64,000 nucleotides of DNA from a virus, in IMG/VR virus record IMGVR_UViG_3300027741_000030, positions 32,001 through 96,000 of that record; one strand, given 5' to 3'. Positions 1,212-48,363 of this stretch are shown one piece after another. The number at the start of each line of letters is the position of its first letter. Position 1 is the first letter of the stretch. The notes below the pieces were generated by a model. That model searched no databases, was not told the origin of the DNA, and saw nothing but the letters and a program-made list of their open reading frames with translations. The position numbers and the translations under genes are program-made.

Positions 1212-1286
1212 GGGGATATAGCTTAATCTGGTTAAAGCACTTGTCTTATATACAATAGATTCTGGGTTCAAATCCCAGTATCCCTA
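1212..1286 (+). tRNA. tRNA-Ile, anticodon UAU
   Basis: Cloverleaf: acceptor GGGGATA/TATCCCT, D stem GCTT/AAGC, anticodon arm CTTGT-CTTATAT-ACAAT (TAT at 1247-1249), T arm CTGGG-TTCAAAT-CCCAG, discriminator A; CCA not fully encoded. Confidence 0.9.
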
Positions 1287-1300
1287 CAATGGAGTAGAAT

Positions 1301-2077: not shown

Positions 2078-3574
2078 ATGAGTAAACCAAATATTGTTAT
2101 TGTAGGTGGCGGCACTGCAGGCTGGCTATCTGCCCTATTTGCTCACAAGAGATATCCAGAAGCCAACGTAACCGTAATAGAAAGCACCGAAATTGGAATC
2201 ATAGGTGCGGGCGAGGGAACAGTTCCAATGCTCCTTACCCTTTTTCAAGACTTAGGTATTAGTTTAAAAGATTTAATTGCAAATACAAAATCTACTATCA
2301 AGAATGGTATAAAGTTTACTAACTGGTCAGAAGATGGTGGAAGCTATTTCCATGGGTTTACTTTTTATCCTGAAACTCTTGAAGATCTTAAAGCTATTGA
2401 TTTTGAAGATAAAGATTTTCCAAACTCAAGGCTATTTGCTTATGGCAAAAAAATAAATGATAAAGACTTTTGTTTTTTTACAATGATATCTGATCAAAAC
2501 AAAATTCCATATACAGAAAAAGAAGGTAGCTACAAAAAGCATGGATCCCATGCCTTACATTTTGACGCAAGAGTGTTGGCTAAATTTCTAAAAGAAAAAA
2601 GCTTAGAAAGAGGAATCATTCATATTGATTCTAAAGTTGTTGATTCAGAAATATCAGAAAATAGCGTAGTATCAGTTACCCTAGAAGATACAACAACTAT
2701 AAATACCGATTTTGTAGTAGATGCCACAGGATTTGCAAGGTACTTTATTGGAAATTCTTTGGGTGGAAAGTGGATAAGTTATTCAGACAATTTACCAGCA
2801 GATTCCGCACAAGCATTCTTTTTAAATATTGAAAACAAAGAAGAAATAGAGCCATATACAGAATCTACCGCAAGAGATTACGGTTGGGTTTGGAAAATTC
2901 CACTTCAGCACAGGTATGGGTGTGGCTACGTATATGATTCAAGGCTGGTATCTAATGAAGATATAAGAAAAGAAATTGTTGAAAAGTATGGAGATGTTGA
3001 ATTTATAAAGCAGTTTAAATTTGAACCTGGAGCTTTTGAAGATATCTGGATTGGCAACTGCATTGCCGTTGGTCTGTCAGCAGGATTTGTAGAGCCACTA
3101 GAAGCTACATCATTGCAACAAACTGCAACAACATTAAACAGAGTGTTTCATGAAGACGTAGAGGCACTAACGCCTGGCAATTACAGAGAGCATATAAATA
3201 AAAAATGCTTTAAGGATTCCGAAGCTATAAAAGATTTTATATACCTACACTATATGACAAATAAGACAAACAATGAGTTTTGGAAAAACTTTACATTAAA
3301 TAATAAAATGCCAGATTCTTTAAAAGAAACGTATAAAAAAATTATTAATATTGATGAAATAAAAATCTATGATCTTTTATGGCCAGAGTACAGCTATTAT
3401 ATTGTTGCTAAAGGCAATGGAATAATGAATGAAAATAATTTATCTAATTTTGCAACAAAATACGAAAAATTTAATCAAGAAATACAAGAAAATTTTGAAG
3501 TAGAAAAGGCTTTGTCTAAAAAATCTATAAAGCATTATGACTTTTTAAAATTAAACGGAGGCTTCAATGAGTAA
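2078..3574 (+). CDS. Flavin-dependent halogenase (tryptophan halogenase/PrnA family)
   Basis: GGGTAGW FAD motif, IGAGEGT, catalytic-Lys context IKNGIKF, WVWKIP (WxWxIP), GFVEPLEATS. Confidence 0.9.
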   Translation: MSKPNIVIVGGGTAGWLSALFAHKRYPEANVTVIESTEIGIIGAGEGTVPMLLTLFQDLGISLKDLIANTKSTIKNGIKFTNWSEDGGSYFHGFTFYPETLEDLKAIDFEDKDFPNSRLFAYGKKINDKDFCFFTMISDQNKIPYTEKEGSYKKHGSHALHFDARVLAKFLKEKSLERGIIHIDSKVVDSEISENSVVSVTLEDTTTINTDFVVDATGFARYFIGNSLGGKWISYSDNLPADSAQAFFLNIENKEEIEPYTESTARDYGWVWKIPLQHRYGCGYVYDSRLVSNEDIRKEIVEKYGDVEFIKQFKFEPGAFEDIWIGNCIAVGLSAGFVEPLEATSLQQTATTLNRVFHEDVEALTPGNYREHINKKCFKDSEAIKDFIYLHYMTNKTNNEFWKNFTLNNKMPDSLKETYKKIINIDEIKIYDLLWPEYSYYIVAKGNGIMNENNLSNFATKYEKFNQEIQENFEVEKALSKKSIKHYDFLKLNGGFNE

Positions 3575-40869: not shown

Positions 40870-43800
40870 ATGGCAGATAATTTAATCACGACCAATATTA
40901 CCGCCAATGCAGACTTTACGAGTTTAAAAACTCAATTAGCTGCAGTTACTGCCCAACTCATAAAACTTCAAGAAACAACTGCTGGAACAAACGCAAAACT
41001 TGCAAATCAAATTGCAGTAATGAACAAGTCTTTTGCAGAGACTATGCGTTCTACTGGACAGTTTTCCTCACATTTTGTTTCTTTAACTTCAGACGTAGAA
41101 AAGTTTGGAAAGAATTTAGATCGTGGCCGTCTTAAATTAAATGATTACTATAATACTTGGAACGGCCACACTAAAAAAACAAGCAATTTAATTAAAGATC
41201 TTGCAAAACAGCAAGTAATGCTTGAACAATCGATTATTCAACCATTAGGCAAAAATGCACAAGGTCTAATGCAATACAATATAATGGTTGCAAAAGGTCT
41301 TGATGAAATAAAAAACAAAACAGCTTTAGCTAGACAAGAAGCTGCAATTATGAATAAGGTCATGCAAGACGGAGCTGGCCAATTAATTAACTGGGGTAAA
41401 AATACACAGTGGGCAGGCCGTCAGCTTACTGTAGGACTTACAGTGCCTCTTGTTGCATTTGGCGCAGCAGCACAGAAAGCATTTAGAGAAGCAGATGCAG
41501 AGCTTGTAAGATTAACAAAAGTTTATGGCGGATTAGCAGCAACTTCATCTCAAGATTTAGCGCAAGTTAGAAAAGATGTAAGCGCAACTGCAAAAGAAAT
41601 TGCTAGCTCATATGGAGTTGCTTATAAAGATACAATATCTTTAGCTGCAGATTTAGCAGCAACAGGTAAACAAGGAAATGATTTACTTCAAGCAACTCAA
41701 CAAACAACAAGGCTTGCAGTACTTGGTGAAGTAGACAGACAAGATGCTATGAAAGCAACTCTTGCTATTCAAAATGCATTTAAACAAAATACAGATCAGC
41801 TAACAGAATCAATTGATTTTCTTAACGCAGTTGAAAACCAAACATCTACAAGCCTTGCAGATTTAACAGAGGCAATTCCAAAAGCTGGTCCAGTAATTAA
41901 ATCTTTAGGCGGAGATGTAAAAGATTTAGCTTTGTATCTTACAGCAATGAAAGAAGGAGGAGTTAATGCTGCAGAAGGTGCAAATGCAATTAAATCAGCA
42001 ATGGCTTCTCTTATTAATCCAACAAAGGTTGCAACAGAGATGTTTGCTTCTTTTGGAATTGATCTTAGGGGAATAGTAACAAAAGACGCTGGAGATTTAA
42101 CACAAACAATTTTAGATTTGCAATCAGCATTAGATGGGTTAAATCCATTAGATAAATCAAGAGCAATTGAACAACTTTTTGGCAAATTTCAATTTGCTAG
42201 AATGTCAGCGTTATTTGAAAACTTAGGAAAATCTGGATCACAAACTCTTCAAGTTATGGATCTTATGAAAGCAAGTGCATCAGACCTTGCTAATATATCT
42301 TCACGAGAATTAAAGTTGATGACAGAATCAGCATCAGGACAGTTTAAGCGAGCCTGGGCTTCTGTTCAGGCAGACCTAGCTTCTACTGGAGAACAATTCT
42401 TAAGAGTAAGTACAAAAGTATTAAATGTTGTAGATAAAATAATAAAGTTTTTTGAAAACTTACCAAAACCAATTAAAACATTTTTAAATGTTTTGGGAGG
42501 AATTACAGCAGTTACTGGACCAATAATCATGCTTACTGGTGTTTTAGGAAATTTCCTTGGATACATAATTAAAGGTATATTTCATTTAAAGCAATTAGGA
42601 AAAGGTGGGCAAGGGTTTAAACTTCTTACACCTGAAATTATGGCAGCGGAAGCTGCAGCAAAAGGACTTGCAACATCATTTTATAGTGATTCAGAAGCAA
42701 CAATTGTTTTATCTAATGCTGTAAATACACTTGCAGAATCATTTGCTAATCTTGAAATGAAAGCAAATGCTGCAAAAGTTGCTGTTCAACCAGCAGTTAC
42801 AACTGTTGCAGGAAATGCTGTAGCACCAGGAGTTTTTGGACAACGAGTAGTTGATAAAAATAATCCATTAATTGGTGCACCTTATTCAAGAGATATGTCA
42901 CATTTGATTCCAACTCAGATGCCACAGGCGGGAACAATTTTTGGAACAGTGCCAGGAGCTGGACCAGTAAACGTTAGAATTGGAAAAAATCCTCAAGCCT
43001 ACATGGATCAGGATATGCCAAAGATTCCTGGGGTCACTTCAGTAAATAATGTTTCCACTGGAATTGTTGCTTCAGAAGCTGCAAAATGGCATGCAATGAC
43101 TGCAGCAATTGCAATGCAATCAGAAGCAGAAATTAAATTACTTAAAACAGAAGTTATGGCTACAGGAACTGTAACTGAAAGTTTATCTCAATCTTACCAA
43201 GCACTTCTCCCACAATTTTCTGAAATCACACAATTAGCAGCAGCTGAAACAAAAGCAATTGTTGCAGATTTACAAGCAAGTAAAATAACTGTTGATGAAG
43301 CTAGAGCAAAAGTTATTCAAATGAATGCAACTGTTGAAGCAATGCTTGCAGAAACTGCAGCAGCCACAGCAGCTGGAATGGGAAGAACTGTTAATTTAAC
43401 AACCGTTCCACTTACATCACAGCCAGTAGTTGATCCAGCTACAGGAAAATCAAACATGAAAGAAATGTTCCATAAAGGAACAACAAAAGAAATTGCAGAT
43501 AGAATTGCAAGAGCTTTAGGCGGAGTTAGAACTTCAGGTGCTGGATATAACATTCATACAACAAAGCCACAGCAATTAAACTCTGGAGGAAGAGTATATA
43601 ATCCATCAAGAGACGGTAACATAGTCCCTGGAGACACATCAATTAACTATGATAATACTCCAGCAGTTTTGCAAGAGGGCGGATATGTATTAAATCAAGG
43701 CGCTTCAAAAAATAATCCAGACTTAGTTAGTCTTGCAAAAAATTCCCGCAACTCTGGAGGAAAAATTGTACCAGCTGTAGTAACTCCAGGCGAAACTTAT

Positions 43801-46800
43801 TTCCCTCCAGAAGTTGCTGAGACAATAATGCCTACACTTGAAAAAGCTAACAAAGGTTCAAAAATATCATTAAGAAATGTCGGCGGATATATAGGTGGTC
43901 TTGTAAAAAGATCAAAGAAGAACTATGGAATTAGTTTTGAAGATTCAGAGCAGATGCGTAGATATGTTGAATATCATACATCATCAAATTTTGATCAGTA
44001 TGCAAAAGCGGCTTCAATTGCAAATGATGCAGAAGCATTAGTTTCTTTAGGATTAAATCCAGAACAAGCTGTAAAAGAGGCTGACCGCTGGTTTGAGGAA
44101 AGATACAATAAGGCTTTAGAAAATAACAATGGCATATTTAAGCAATCAGAATTTGATAAAGTTACACAAGAAAGTTATTCTGATTTACAAAAACATTTAA
44201 AGAAAAGATACGGTATAACAAAACCTATCTCAAAAGAATGGCGCACACTTTCAAAGTCTGGAAGCCAGCAAATGAAAACTCAAAGCTGGAGATATGTACG
44301 TGGAAAAGTTGATTATACAATAAGAAATAAAATATTTGATTTACTTGGAGAACCAGGAAAGAGATTAAAAAAAGAAGCCGTTTTTGCAAATCAAGAACGA
44401 GCACACTACACCTCTGGAAGCACACAGGCTAAGTCTGGATTTAATTATTTAGGACAGGCAGTAATACAGCCTTGGGAAATTAATCAGCTTGCTCACGAGC
44501 TTTCAAGATATGGAGTTATACAAAATTCATTTTCTTTGTCATCTGCTGAGAATAAACAGCAGTTTGATAGAATTGCAAAAAATTTAGGGTACTTAGATCA
44601 CGATGACATGTTGGAAAGCTTAAAGGGCAAAAAGAGCTCTCCAGCAAAACCTCCTAGAGTATTTAAAGTTGAAAATGGAATGACAGCGCCATTGCGTAAA
44701 ATGGTTTCTTCTTCCCCTGCACAATTTAAAAATTACATGAGATTGCCAGCCGTAGCAAGAATGCTCGCTATGTCTGGAGCAAGATTTAATGCTGGAGGAG
44801 CAGTTGGTGGCTCAGTTCGCAAAGATAAGCATAATTATGGAAAACTCCCAGCATGGATAATCAGAAATGAAAAGATCAAAAACTTAGCCAACACTGATCC
44901 AGCACATGGTGTTTTACAAATTGGTAAATATCACCCAGCTTTGCATGTTAGAAATCAATATGTTGCTCCTTCTATTAGATATAAGAGTAACTATGAACCA
45001 TTTACATGGGATAAAGGACCTCAAGCTGGCCAAACAGTATATTCTCCAAGAAGAACTGGTGGGGTGCCAGCATTTGAAACTGGAACAATAGAAACAAGAG
45101 CAAAGACAGCTTTATACAATTACATGCAAGGTGATTATCAAGCAATTAATGATCCAGCAGTCCAAACATACCTTTCAACTTTAAGAACTAAATTTACAGG
45201 AACACTTCATAGAGGAGTTAGAAACATATCTAGCCTTCCTCCTGTAATTAGTAATCTAATTAAAGAAGGCAAATGGGATGAGCTTGTAGGTAAAGAATTT
45301 ATTATGCGTCGCTCATCATGGAGCACAAATAAAGATACCGCAGAAGGATTTGGACAATTACAGCTTATTGCAAATGTAAAAAATAGAAATGCTGTTCCAG
45401 CTTCTGAAATATTTCCAAACTTAACATTTCAATCTCCACAGGGACCAGTACCAGTAAACGAAAGTGAAGTTTACATGGGAGGTAAGTTTAAAGTTATTGC
45501 AGCTGATAAAAATAGATTAAAGCTACAAGCAATATATGATGCTGCTCGTGAAAATGGCGGACCAGTAAATGCTGGAAGACCTTATCTTGTTGGAGAAAAG
45601 GGTCCAGAAATCTTTGTTCCAAAAAATGCTGGAGGTGTAATTCCAGGATATAACGTTGGCGGAATGGTAAAGTCAATGATTATGAGCACACTCGGATACA
45701 CGGGTGGATCGATGCTTGGAGGAATGACAGGTTTGCCAGGCGGAGCAATGATTGGCGGAATGCTTGGCTCAATGTTTGGAATGGGCGGAGACTCATCTAT
45801 GGGAAGAAGTCCAAGGCCACAACCAGAAGGCCCACGTATGGAAAATGGAATGTTTTCAAAAAACTTTTCTATGGAGCATTTTACAAAACCAATAGGTCCA
45901 GCAGGAAAACTTGCAGATAAATTAAATCTGCTTGGATTATCAGGTGGAAGATTTTCTAATGTTTTAGCAAAAATAGGACCACTTCTTGCAAGACTTCCAA
46001 TGGCATTTAATCCAGTTGGGGTTGCAATTGCAGCAGTAACAGCAGCTACAGTTCTCGGGGTTAAAAGATGGAAAGACCATAATGAACATTTAAGAATTGG
46101 AATGCTTCAATATAGTTTAACTGCAGAAGCAGCAAAAAAAGCTGGAGTAAAATTTACTGATTACAATACAAAGTTAGCAGACACTGTTGCAAATATTAAA
46201 GCAATAAGAGAAAGAAATCAACTTCTTTATGAAAGCATGGAGTCTGCTGGAATGCCAATAGAAATGACTATTGAACAATATAAAAAATTGCGTAAAGAAG
46301 TTAAAGATTCTTATGCAGATCAAATTAAATTAATTAACCAAACAAAGGGTGAAGGAAATACAAGAAAGCTTGCAGAAGACCTTAAAATTGAATTAATGGC
46401 AGCAGGCATGTCAGCAGAAGATGCAACAAAGAAAATTTGGGCAATGTTTAAACTTTCTGAAAAAGCAAAAGACGCTGCAACATTTACACTAGGAAACTCT
46501 GGCTTTAATAAAATAAAAGATGGCCAATCTGTAGCAGTCAGTGCAATATCTAGATACAACGCTGCTGCAAAAGAAGGCGGGCGTGAAGGCGCAGGTGCAG
46601 TACAAACTGGACTAACATCAATAGATGCTGGCATACAAGACATGATTGCTAGAAGTAAAAAAGCAGCAAAAGCAGATAAGTCTGGAAACACAAAAGTATT
46701 AACTGAATATCAGGCACAAGAAGCTATGCTTAATAAATTAAATTCTCTTGAGTCATCAAAAGCAAGATTAACAAAAGCAACAAGAGATGAAATGATTAAG

Positions 46801-48363
46801 CAAAACCCAGAACTTAAAAAGATTATTAATCCACTAGACACAATTGTAAGTCTATGGGGAAAGATGAATCTTGCAGCAAAAGGCTTTACAGGTAATTTAG
46901 AAGCTCTAGGTCCAAAAGCAGTTGAAACATTATCTAAGATTGCTGATGCTGTTTCTGAAGCAACAGCTTCTTCAAACAAAACTGGACTATTAAAAGATCA
47001 ATATGCAATGCTTGATAAATTAACTGCACAACAAAAGGCGTTAATGAAGGCTGCAAAAGGACAAAGCGTAGCACAGCAAATAAGTACTAAAGATCAACTT
47101 AAAGCTCTTCAGGCACAAATTGATGCAAACAATAAACTTGCGGATGCAAGATTAAAAGCTCTTGATGCTGCAAAACAAGAAGGAGATATAGCAAGAGAAA
47201 TTGCTAAGAAGCAAGCAGAGTATGATGCTGCCTTAGCAACAGGTAATTCAGCTGCAGCACAACAGGCAAGCTTAGATATTCAAGGGCTTCAATCAGATCA
47301 GCAATATCTTGCACAGAAAAAAGCAATTGAAGATGCGCTTAAATTACAAAATGCACCACTTGAAGCAAAAATAAAAGCAATTAACGAAGGTCAAGAAAAA
47401 CTTTCAAATCAAGCAGCCCTTGCAGCTGAAAGTTTAGGAAAAATTAATGAAAAGATAGCAACACAAAAACAAAAAATTGATGACGTTAATTCAGCAATGA
47501 CAACATTTAGAATAAATGCAATCGCAGCTGGCAAAACTCTTGAAGAGTATGCTTTGACCAAAGAAGGAAAACAAGATGCTGCAGCAGTTGTAGGTGCATC
47601 AAAGACAGCGGGAATAAAAGTGCCTACCAGTGGCGGCGGTCATTACGAAGGAAGCACATTTGTTCCAGACAAAAAGAATGTTGGATCACAAGCACTAGAC
47701 TTAGTCAATCAGACTGAAGATGCTGTAGCCTCAGCTCTATCCTCAAAGGGCATTCAAATGGGTAGCGGAGACATCTACATTGTTGGAAAAGATGGAAAGA
47801 AAACAAAAGTTGATGCAACTTCATATCAAGATGGTAAAAAATCTAGTGCAGGTATAAACAAATCCATGGTAAATGGAAAAGAAAAACTATCTGTTCAAGC
47901 ATTGCAATTAACTGCAGAAAAAATACCTACAAAACAGGGAACAGAATTTTTTATTAAAGACCAAAAATACAAGATTACTGGGCCAGTGGGTTCTAACGGA
48001 TATCTTCCAATTGAAAAAGCTGGATACGGAACAATGAATCTAAATCCAAGAATTCCTACAATTGTTGGAGACAGAGGCCCAGAGCTAGCATTTGGCGGAA
48101 TGATTATTCCTAATATGGCTAAGGTGCCATTTTCTTCTCCAAGATATGATGTAAATAAAGCAAATCTTAGATTTGAATCAATGCGTGATAGTTCAAGCGG
48201 AAGCGTAATTAATCTTACTCAAAACATTTATCCTTCAGACGGAATGAATACAGAAGCATTTGTAAGACAAGTTGTTCAGCAAACAAAGCAAGCTATTGGA
48301 CAAGATACAAAATTAAATGCTAAAATGGTAGGAAATTCAATGAATGTGAGTATTAGATCATGA
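40870..48363 (+). CDS. Tape measure protein with inserted cargo domains including an ADP-ribosyltransferase
   Basis: 2497 aa; TP901-type TMP core (GRQLTVGLTVP, ENQTS.SL.DL, ANAIKS); YLVGEKGPEIFVP motif; R-S-E ART motif near aa 1448-1533. Confidence 0.92.
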   Translation: MADNLITTNITANADFTSLKTQLAAVTAQLIKLQETTAGTNAKLANQIAVMNKSFAETMRSTGQFSSHFVSLTSDVEKFGKNLDRGRLKLNDYYNTWNGHTKKTSNLIKDLAKQQVMLEQSIIQPLGKNAQGLMQYNIMVAKGLDEIKNKTALARQEAAIMNKVMQDGAGQLINWGKNTQWAGRQLTVGLTVPLVAFGAAAQKAFREADAELVRLTKVYGGLAATSSQDLAQVRKDVSATAKEIASSYGVAYKDTISLAADLAATGKQGNDLLQATQQTTRLAVLGEVDRQDAMKATLAIQNAFKQNTDQLTESIDFLNAVENQTSTSLADLTEAIPKAGPVIKSLGGDVKDLALYLTAMKEGGVNAAEGANAIKSAMASLINPTKVATEMFASFGIDLRGIVTKDAGDLTQTILDLQSALDGLNPLDKSRAIEQLFGKFQFARMSALFENLGKSGSQTLQVMDLMKASASDLANISSRELKLMTESASGQFKRAWASVQADLASTGEQFLRVSTKVLNVVDKIIKFFENLPKPIKTFLNVLGGITAVTGPIIMLTGVLGNFLGYIIKGIFHLKQLGKGGQGFKLLTPEIMAAEAAAKGLATSFYSDSEATIVLSNAVNTLAESFANLEMKANAAKVAVQPAVTTVAGNAVAPGVFGQRVVDKNNPLIGAPYSRDMSHLIPTQMPQAGTIFGTVPGAGPVNVRIGKNPQAYMDQDMPKIPGVTSVNNVSTGIVASEAAKWHAMTAAIAMQSEAEIKLLKTEVMATGTVTESLSQSYQALLPQFSEITQLAAAETKAIVADLQASKITVDEARAKVIQMNATVEAMLAETAAATAAGMGRTVNLTTVPLTSQPVVDPATGKSNMKEMFHKGTTKEIADRIARALGGVRTSGAGYNIHTTKPQQLNSGGRVYNPSRDGNIVPGDTSINYDNTPAVLQEGGYVLNQGASKNNPDLVSLAKNSRNSGGKIVPAVVTPGETYFPPEVAETIMPTLEKANKGSKISLRNVGGYIGGLVKRSKKNYGISFEDSEQMRRYVEYHTSSNFDQYAKAASIANDAEALVSLGLNPEQAVKEADRWFEERYNKALENNNGIFKQSEFDKVTQESYSDLQKHLKKRYGITKPISKEWRTLSKSGSQQMKTQSWRYVRGKVDYTIRNKIFDLLGEPGKRLKKEAVFANQERAHYTSGSTQAKSGFNYLGQAVIQPWEINQLAHELSRYGVIQNSFSLSSAENKQQFDRIAKNLGYLDHDDMLESLKGKKSSPAKPPRVFKVENGMTAPLRKMVSSSPAQFKNYMRLPAVARMLAMSGARFNAGGAVGGSVRKDKHNYGKLPAWIIRNEKIKNLANTDPAHGVLQIGKYHPALHVRNQYVAPSIRYKSNYEPFTWDKGPQAGQTVYSPRRTGGVPAFETGTIETRAKTALYNYMQGDYQAINDPAVQTYLSTLRTKFTGTLHRGVRNISSLPPVISNLIKEGKWDELVGKEFIMRRSSWSTNKDTAEGFGQLQLIANVKNRNAVPASEIFPNLTFQSPQGPVPVNESEVYMGGKFKVIAADKNRLKLQAIYDAARENGGPVNAGRPYLVGEKGPEIFVPKNAGGVIPGYNVGGMVKSMIMSTLGYTGGSMLGGMTGLPGGAMIGGMLGSMFGMGGDSSMGRSPRPQPEGPRMENGMFSKNFSMEHFTKPIGPAGKLADKLNLLGLSGGRFSNVLAKIGPLLARLPMAFNPVGVAIAAVTAATVLGVKRWKDHNEHLRIGMLQYSLTAEAAKKAGVKFTDYNTKLADTVANIKAIRERNQLLYESMESAGMPIEMTIEQYKKLRKEVKDSYADQIKLINQTKGEGNTRKLAEDLKIELMAAGMSAEDATKKIWAMFKLSEKAKDAATFTLGNSGFNKIKDGQSVAVSAISRYNAAAKEGGREGAGAVQTGLTSIDAGIQDMIARSKKAAKADKSGNTKVLTEYQAQEAMLNKLNSLESSKARLTKATRDEMIKQNPELKKIINPLDTIVSLWGKMNLAAKGFTGNLEALGPKAVETLSKIADAVSEATASSNKTGLLKDQYAMLDKLTAQQKALMKAAKGQSVAQQISTKDQLKALQAQIDANNKLADARLKALDAAKQEGDIAREIAKKQAEYDAALATGNSAAAQQASLDIQGLQSDQQYLAQKKAIEDALKLQNAPLEAKIKAINEGQEKLSNQAALAAESLGKINEKIATQKQKIDDVNSAMTTFRINAIAAGKTLEEYALTKEGKQDAAAVVGASKTAGIKVPTSGGGHYEGSTFVPDKKNVGSQALDLVNQTEDAVASALSSKGIQMGSGDIYIVGKDGKKTKVDATSYQDGKKSSAGINKSMVNGKEKLSVQALQLTAEKIPTKQGTEFFIKDQKYKITGPVGSNGYLPIEKAGYGTMNLNPRIPTIVGDRGPELAFGGMIIPNMAKVPFSSPRYDVNKANLRFESMRDSSSGSVINLTQNIYPSDGMNTEAFVRQVVQQTKQAIGQDTKLNAKMVGNSMNVSIRS

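Follow-up and report, generated by a model that had tools for sequence, protein, structure and literature searches.

A siphophage tape measure protein with two junction-bounded slots of exchangeable domains, one of them holding a predicted ADP-ribosyltransferase

Tape measure proteins (TMPs) are regarded as rulers that also form channels, and some carry cell-wall hydrolases. Here we describe the TMP of an uncultured phage of ~116 kb in which two internal slots, each preceded by the same short junction peptide, hold an orphan domain (cargo 1, slot 1) and a predicted ADP-ribosyltransferase (ART; cargo 2, slot 2), and in whose relatives the slots hold other domains. The gene lies in a stretch of 64,000 nucleotides (the window), which represents bases 32001-96000 of a 115,655-bp virus genome in IMG/VR (IMGVR_UViG_3300027741_000030; complete per CheckV). 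Our analysis favors, as a probable reading with several reservations, that this giant siphophage TMP doubles as a carrier of enzymatic effector modules in two junction-bounded slots.

Cell-wall hydrolase domains are embedded in mycobacteriophage TM4 Tmp, T5 pb2 and the TMP of Staphylococcus phage phiIPLA35 (cited in PMC12617516). These proteins and the TMP of Jay2Jay, in which Rpf-type and M23-type-looking motifs follow (by eye) a GE-type unit, resemble the present TMP (hereafter P0001) in that enzymatic domains are built in near Gly-rich/GE-type motifs and glycine zippers. The cargo differs, however. P0001 holds a predicted ART (kinase-like in relatives) and orphan domains that would need cytoplasmic cofactors, and holds them mid-protein, in slots with a specific repeated junction and with contents that are exchanged among relatives; the Jay2Jay TMP has neither an ART nor the junction motif. 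TMPs may also be processed: lambda gpH is cleaved within a Gly-rich region near its C-terminus (protease, site unknown), T5 pb2 is cut as well, and expelled TMPs form a trans-envelope conduit (PMC12617516). Common ground with P0001 is the sequence setting, since cleavage of gpH to gpH* and of pb2 takes place in or near a glycine-rich region beside a GE[FY]V-type motif (lambda gpH aa 745-787: ...AGIVHRGEFVF...ATGGYVG). The similarity between gpH and the GE unit of P0001 is at the level of the pattern only (E 0.09 with a hidden Markov model, HMM).

Virion-delivered ARTs are known from T4 Alt and from MuF-ART (VIP2-like) fusions (PMC9503650, PMC7302621). Together with the MuF polymorphic toxins they parallel P0001 as virion-carried R-S-E ARTs released with the DNA, and as combinations of a structural chassis with variable effectors (PMC9503650, PMC7302621, PMC5512222). 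Theirs are head-borne C-terminal fusions (internal protein or MuF/portal-associated), whereas the chassis of P0001 is a tail-lumen TMP whose modules are internal and have junction repeats on both sides. A 2022 survey of viral NAD/ADPr systems does not include tape measures. Polyvalent proteins (Iyer et al. 2017, PMC5512222) likewise combine several effector domains, ARTs being the commonest, in a single injected polypeptide, which is presumably split up once delivered. Their ARTs are of the H-Y-D type (Tox-ART-HYD2) and a zincin MPTase is usual (PMC5512222), whereas P0001 has a probable R-S-ExE ART on a TMP scaffold in which no peptidase was found. Pfam detected no LPD family and no processing peptidase in the TMP, the sole LPD trace being a weak Atlas match (0.82) to an LPD39-containing cluster. 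Polymorphic toxin systems (Zhang et al. 2012, PMC3482391) share the plan of a conserved delivery scaffold with hypervariable enzymatic tips recombined at conserved pre-toxin motifs. In contrast to these, the modules of P0001 are internal and not C-terminal, no stand-alone cassette of cargo 1 or of the ART was found, and the target is likely the phage's own host at infection and not a competitor. Enzyme-bearing TMPs and virion-packaged ARTs are known already, while their combination in the P0001 family is apparently undescribed; in the full-text literature we found no published account of an ART or kinase inside a tape measure, or of a junction-delimited TMP slot.

The gene and the two junction peptides, here called delimiters, are:

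40870..48363, + strand: TMP gene (P0001), a single open reading frame (ORF) of 2497 aa
43873..43929, + strand: delimiter D1 (RNVGGYIGGLVKRSKKNYG), aa 1002-1020, from the motif HMM; AF2 pLDDT ~28-36
44782..44841, + strand: delimiter D2 (RFNAGGAVGGSVRKDKHNYG), aa 1305-1324, from the motif HMM; pLDDT <50 in two models

The first-pass annotation of the window had pointed out the two delimiter copies, and its coordinates for both are exact. The further NxGG motifs it had named are present too (LNSGG at aa 903, RNSGG at aa 960, ENGG at aa 1561 and YNVGG at aa 1594), as is KNAGG at aa 1585. All N.GG/NGG sites of the protein (7/7) are found within aa 904-1598, with ~2 expected over the whole protein. 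D1/D2 is the best ungapped internal self-match of the TMP (BLOSUM62 score 60). Judged from the single sequence alone the repeat is only suggestive and modestly significant, because the best self-match in 60 shuffles of the TMP sequence (45.8 +/- 5.1) reached a maximum of 64.

Comparative data settle the question. A homologue search with aa 890-1620 returned 192 TMPs of 1.4-4.4 kaa, 120 of which are covered by the family counts given here; their N-termini are 56-99% identical to P0001, and all of the family has the pre and post motifs. A motif HMM run on the 120 homologous TMPs detects the junction peptide, with the consensus N.GG..GG.V..gK.NYG with the core GG.V....K.NYG. The motif occurs two to three times at equivalent positions in most of these TMPs, including those with unrelated cargo: at ~aa 1003 past the "pre" region, at ~aa 1250-1320 ahead of the ART, and at ~aa 1550-1640. 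The third copy comes after PYLVGE.GPE..VP.N.GGIIP.YALGG and is degenerate in P0001. D1/D2 is thus confirmed as a real, conserved element. Since both delimiters have a pLDDT <50 in AlphaFold models built on family alignments, they are predicted to be conserved yet disordered. The DNA of D1 and that of D2 have no long identical tract in common, which rules out a DNA repeat; selection therefore acts on the peptide, and the earlier suggestion that the delimiters serve as DNA recombination sites is not supported. The junctions act as crossover points because they are conserved, not as dedicated recombination sites.

Exchange of the slot contents is seen in the alignments. Pairwise identity drops from ~80% to 10-25% within ~20 residues at aa 1000 and recovers at aa 1300; in other relatives further breaks occur at ~aa 1400, 1560-1620 and 1720. 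A polymorphic slot, as had been proposed from the sequence, is what the TMP alignment shows, with identity breaking at the delimiters. The region is non-helical, modular and variable in homologues, and the delimiters are kept while unrelated families replace the domain between them. Modular exchange takes place at the junctions, and the mosaic breakpoints are located there.

BLAST finds cargo 1 of P0001 in only a minority of homologues. By hhalign the P0001 slot-1 family shows full-length homology to clusters C8, C11 and C13, and C6 and C10 join this group via C8 (C6-C8, 285 columns; C6-C10, 243 columns), the F1-C6 match being N-terminal only (107 columns). With C1, C3 and C4 (26, 11 and 9 proteins, respectively) it shares only the D2 junction (28-32 columns, probability 94-96%), and with C2, C5, C7 and C9 it shares nothing. 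All-against-all hhalign comparison yields at least five mutually unrelated slot-1 body families, and the alternative cassettes have no match in Pfam or PHROGs. On a backbone tree (FastTree, first 850 residues of 118 TMPs, a gene that itself recombines) the slot-1 type changes, by a rough count, at least 44 times, compared with a possible minimum of 9 and 70.9 +/- 2.5 for shuffled types; presence of the ART changes at least 7 times.

Cargo 2 consists of two parts:

44842..45081, + strand: beta-rich N-terminal adaptor, aa 1325-1404, with an invariant DPxHG..IG, from alignment and model
45082..45537, + strand: predicted ART core, aa 1405-1556, from fold and catalytic residues

The proposal that cargo 2 is an ART holds up, with fold matches and catalytic residues in agreement. 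Foldseek searches of the PDB with a model of aa 1300-1610 (core pLDDT 74-93) gave R-S-E ART matches at probability 1.00 and E ~1e-4, among them C2-I, C3, Certhrax, iota Ia, CDTa, SpvB, HopU1 and Tre1. In VIA-align the top 50 matches are all R-S-E ARTs (Z 9.4-10.9 over ~135 residues, rmsd 3.1-3.9 A), and the partners include C3, iota Ia, VIP2, ExoS and Tre1. The catalytic set comprises R1448 (LHRGV, strand 1), S1483-W-S1485 (S-x-S, strand 2) and E1531-S-E1533 (ARTT loop). R1448, S1483, E1531 and E1533 are invariant in an alignment of 43 sequences down to 38% identity, and the catalytic residues are intact and under purifying selection. The ART HMM detects one copy each in 106 of the 120 TMPs. 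By predicted fold and active site cargo 2 is an R-S-E ART; it is not placed in PF03496 because the profile match stays below the family threshold and the ART region has no match among PDB sequences. Cargo 2 is probably an R-S-ExE mono-ADP-ribosyltransferase, with arginine as the likely acceptor under the ExE rule. The adaptor in front of the core has three alternative forms in homologues (KLP.WIIRNEK; PNGQ.P...YPMP.SYYQD, which is ~70 aa longer; and S.I.RLTARWKP..QFY.PG.QY), and identity dips at aa 1280-1400 in otherwise close relatives. These adaptor forms are swapped among close relatives independently of the ART core.

The 14 of 120 TMPs without an ART show what else slot 2 can hold. Twelve of them carry a kinase-like domain (P0050-52, P0073, P0076, P0083, P0094, P0104, P0106, P0112, P0113 and P0120), which is also found at 2464-3453 of the IMG/VR contig L006. 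It displays a GIGG.Y G-loop (GIGG.Y.K.DG..VFVKP), ALAEQRA, LRGD[KR]DLS.DNL and DVGT[AS]G, and is followed by an N.GGG.IG junction (NGFNGGG.IGNVLKG) and a module of ~140 aa. The remaining two, P0111 and P0116, have only the N.GGG.IG junction and the ~140-aa module. Depending on the TMP, the kinase-like family sits in slot 1 or in slot 2. It has no match in Pfam or PHROGs, and the Atlas gave weak leads only (HipA_2, PI3_PI4_kinase and LepB_N).

Slot 1 of P0001 holds:

43930..44781, + strand: cargo 1, aa 1021-1304, an orphan domain, from AF2 model and family alignment

The AF2 model of cargo 1 shows an N-terminal helical bundle followed by an alpha/beta part (core pLDDT 80-96). The motifs ERAHY (aa 1176-1180) and QPWEINQ (aa 1200-1206), in which a resemblance to His-Me nucleases had tentatively been seen, are present. 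They coincide with a predicted beta-beta-alpha element (strands at aa 1176-1179 and 1197-1200, helix at aa 1202-1213), with H1179 ending strand 1 and N1205 on the helix (AF2; pLDDT 59 around strand 1 and 38 in the loop). The cargo-1 superfamily obtained with an iterated HMM (~43 TMPs, 20-25% identical) retains N1205 without exception (43/43), and H1179 and D1053 almost throughout (40/43 and 39/43, respectively). Structure searches gave no convincing match (Foldseek PDB E>1, VIA wide Z<=4.5, BFVD E>0.3), and there is no nuclease among the listed Foldseek and VIA matches, although a motif of 30-40 residues can escape whole-domain searches. Cargo 1 has no Pfam match at E up to 10 and no profile match to any nuclease; the ESM Atlas returned unnamed clusters only, and the profile of alignment A1 gave against PDB sequences only coiled-coil noise in the C-terminal half. 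A phmmer search of cargo 1 with its delimiters against 1.84 billion cluster representatives found only the TMP family and no stand-alone relative. The predicted topology and the conserved H/N dyad fit a His-Me finger, where the catalytic His closes strand 1 and the helix bears a metal-binding Asn or His, but the model has low confidence in strand 1 and the loop, and structural and profile matches to a nuclease are missing. On this balance of model and alignment, cargo 1 as a His-Me finger (metal-dependent) nuclease is a tentative assignment, somewhat less likely than not. A role of cargo 1 as immunity partner of the ART was also considered and dropped, because cargo-1-type domains occur both with and without an ART.

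The brackets around the slots belong to a larger repeat and to a motif that in other TMPs lies near the C-terminus:

43579..43872, + strand: two Gly-rich copies of the "GE unit", the left bracket of slot 1, from the unit HMM
45550..45663, + strand: right bracket of the ART, GGPV..PYLVGEKGPEIFVP followed by KNAGGVIPGYNVGG, aa 1561-1598, from the sequence motif
48061..48114, + strand: second, truly C-terminal copy of the terminal motif (IVGDRGPELAFGGMIIPN), aa 2398-2415, from the sequence

The GE unit has the pattern GG, [IV]PA.L[TS].GE[YF]V, ~20 residues, LN.G and then GG. Its strong copy in P0001, annotated at aa 961-1001, reads N.GG..VPA.VTPGE.YF...LEKAN.G, and a weak copy is annotated at aa 904-960. 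The unit HMM scores 70 bits at aa 963-1006, running straight into D1, and weakly at aa 928-956. Across the 120 homologues the left-bracket GE region is conserved at 38-99%. Weak matches of the unit HMM include the Jay2Jay TMP (E 0.006) and lambda gpH (E 0.09). The delimiter does not stand alone as a signal but forms the tail of the GE unit, a larger Gly-rich repeat of a kind typical for the C-terminal regions of TMPs. The larger homologues (3-4.3 kaa) have a second insertion site, located in their C-terminal half and bracketed by two copies of G.GT.TSDSIPA.LS.GEYV...FDALN (P0050 aa 2640-2978, P0039 aa 2663-3107, P0057 aa 2419-2606). It holds either CHAP+LysM, with a GE unit on both sides, or an OmpA-like domain, ahead of which one copy is found.

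In homologues the right bracket runs on into the third delimiter, YALGG.V..GK.NYG, which in P0001 is degenerate. Hundreds of unrelated TMPs carry its motif, GGPV..PY.VGEKGPE.FVP..G.IVPN. The median distance of this terminal motif to the C-terminus, taken over 152 other TMP ORFs, is 75 aa (93% within 120 aa). In the window it matches just PHROG 30701 (function unknown) and PHROG 1538, and no Pfam family. The loci with the terminal motif (GGPV..g.PY.VGEKGPELFVP..sG.IVPN; L004-L161) are mostly proteobacterial prophages and marine phages. In P0001 the first copy lies ~920 aa from the protein end and the motif recurs at aa 2398-2415; the slots are therefore placed immediately upstream of an internalised TMP terminus, and past that terminus come a glycine zipper and a hydrophobic helix:

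45703..46062, + strand: glycine-zipper stretch (aa 1612-1640) and hydrophobic helix (aa 1715-1731), from the sequence

Glycine zippers of TMPs and of the T6SS protein Tde1 have been linked to membrane translocation (PMC10240207), and those of P0001 are, together with the hydrophobic helix, candidate membrane-inserting segments. The zipper-to-helix segment (window 45730-46030, aa ~1620-1720) is a mosaic block exchanged between close relatives; in P0002, the closest relative, identity is 25-40% at aa ~1620-1720 and 90-100% in the flanks.

The TMP core domain PF10145 is found at aa 239-438 (Pfam; E 2.9e-28, 99.6 bits with a cut-off of 33.2), which means that the PhageMin_Tail core domain of the TP901 family (PF10145 / TIGR01760) passes the gathering threshold in P0001, and PHROG tape-measure families match the first 850-1100 residues down to E 5.8e-120. 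All large ORFs of the window are on the + strand. The gene sits in a siphovirus tail module with chaperone-like genes on one side and a minor tail protein on the other, i.e. at the position expected of the family, past the tail tube and chaperone genes and ahead of the distal/minor tail genes; PHROG matches of the neighbours comprise an adaptor, an Ig-domain tail protein, two small chaperone-like genes, and minor tail and fibre proteins. Gene order around the TMP is syntenic with Streptomyces phage Jay2Jay. An actinobacterial host is only a guess, made because the closest relatives in culture, at 32-35% identity across the TMP N-terminus, belong to the Streptomyces cluster BE-type phages (Stanwilliamsviridae). 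No prophage copy was found among 185,579 genomes; the matches there are unrelated TMPs with the terminal motif and hence give no host clue. Searches with the slot region gave no match by blastn against 50,697 phage records, and by tblastn the terminal motif was the sole match in the phage records. No Macro domain turned up in the phage genome, which encodes a tRNA-Ile (anticodon TAT) at window 1212-1287.

How could such a TMP work? Under the carrier reading, three or six TMP copies would reside in the tail lumen and be expelled ahead of the DNA, and the hydrophobic and Gly-zipper segments would enter the membrane. The modules, in P0001 a probable R-S-ExE ART in slot 2 and in slot 1 a fast-turnover domain, possibly a His-Me-type nuclease, would reach the NAD-containing cytoplasm and there modify proteins of the host at an early stage of infection, comparable to head-borne T4 Alt. 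The disordered junctions may be hinges, allowing modules to be housed in the tube in a folded or semi-folded state, and might in addition, though this is somewhat less likely than not, be the sites where the TMP is cut; the conserved junction peptide would provide a permissive crossover point for module exchange between phages.

Several points weigh against this reading. Folded domains of ~25-30 kDa, in three or six copies, are hard to fit into a tail-tube lumen of ~4 nm, and residues N-terminal to the Gly-zipper may end up on either side of the membrane. For the ART, the match to Pfam PF03496 (ADPrib_exo_Tox) is sub-threshold (E 0.12; 12.2 bits with a cut-off of 23.4), no sequence relatives were detected outside TMPs, and a word-indexed search found no stand-alone relatives of 129-413 aa. 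The change counts on the backbone tree are rough because they come from a FastTree of a recombining gene, and some slot-1 "families" may represent one fold that has diverged past the reach of hhalign, which would inflate the number of swaps.

The main rival holds that the junctions are structural, i.e. repeated TMP-terminal Gly-rich/GE units that keep the oligomer in register or dock it to the tube or tip, and that the modules stay tethered and act in cis from the trans-envelope conduit. We regard this as a serious possibility, if one falling somewhat short of probable. It agrees well with the N.GG junction being the tail of a unit also found at ordinary TMP C-termini, with the weak matches of that unit in Jay2Jay and lambda, and with the lack of a peptidase domain in the TMP (Pfam). 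Against it speak the predicted disorder of both junctions, the cleavage of lambda and T5 TMPs in or near such Gly-rich regions (PMC12617516), and the strictly conserved basic K.NYG tail in a disordered linker, for which recognition by a partner is a better explanation than a spacer role.

A further-going reading, in our view unlikely, is a TMP that acts as a tail-lumen polyprotein whose GG.V..K.NYG junctions would be cut autocatalytically or by a protease of the lambda gpH type, setting free in the cytoplasm the ART or kinase together with a nuclease of a new type.

It is improbable that the modules work late in the producing cell, modifying host or phage proteins during assembly, or act on the envelope like TMP hydrolases, and are not injected cytoplasmic effectors at all. 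The TMP is made abundantly late in infection with the ART exposed, and known TMP-embedded enzymes are cell-wall hydrolases, larger homologues carrying CHAP, LysM and OmpA-like domains. However, ARTs and kinases depend on NAD or ATP, both of them in short supply outside the cytoplasm, the hydrolase inserts occupy a different, C-terminal slot, and a high slot-1 turnover is typical of arms-race effectors and not of assembly factors. Finally, that slot 1 holds a single fast-diverging ancestral domain whose cassettes are only apparent, having drifted past detection, is equally improbable: the iterated HMM does tie cargo 1 to ~43 of 120 TMPs, including the BLAST-separated C6, C8, C10, C11 and C13, but hhalign detects nothing between the bodies of C1, C3, C4/C7, C2/C9 and C5 while aligning the neighbouring junction of 30 residues with a probability of 94-96%, identity collapses within ~20 residues in pairs with ~80% identical flanks, and the kinase-like family is found in slot 1 or slot 2 depending on the TMP.

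If the carrier reading is correct, a TMP serving as chassis for cytoplasm-type enzymes, with a quickly exchanged second slot, would imply tail-borne delivery of host-takeover or anti-defence proteins before phage gene expression. The junction peptide would be a concrete candidate for the still-unknown TMP processing site and may offer a natural design rule for inserting foreign domains into TMPs. Were the polyprotein reading true, giant siphophage TMPs would constitute a general system for injecting hot-swappable effectors, a parallel to the internal proteins of T4 and to T6SS cargo. The slot-1 families represent a pool of uncharacterised, probably conflict-related domains without relatives in Pfam, PHROGs or the PDB.

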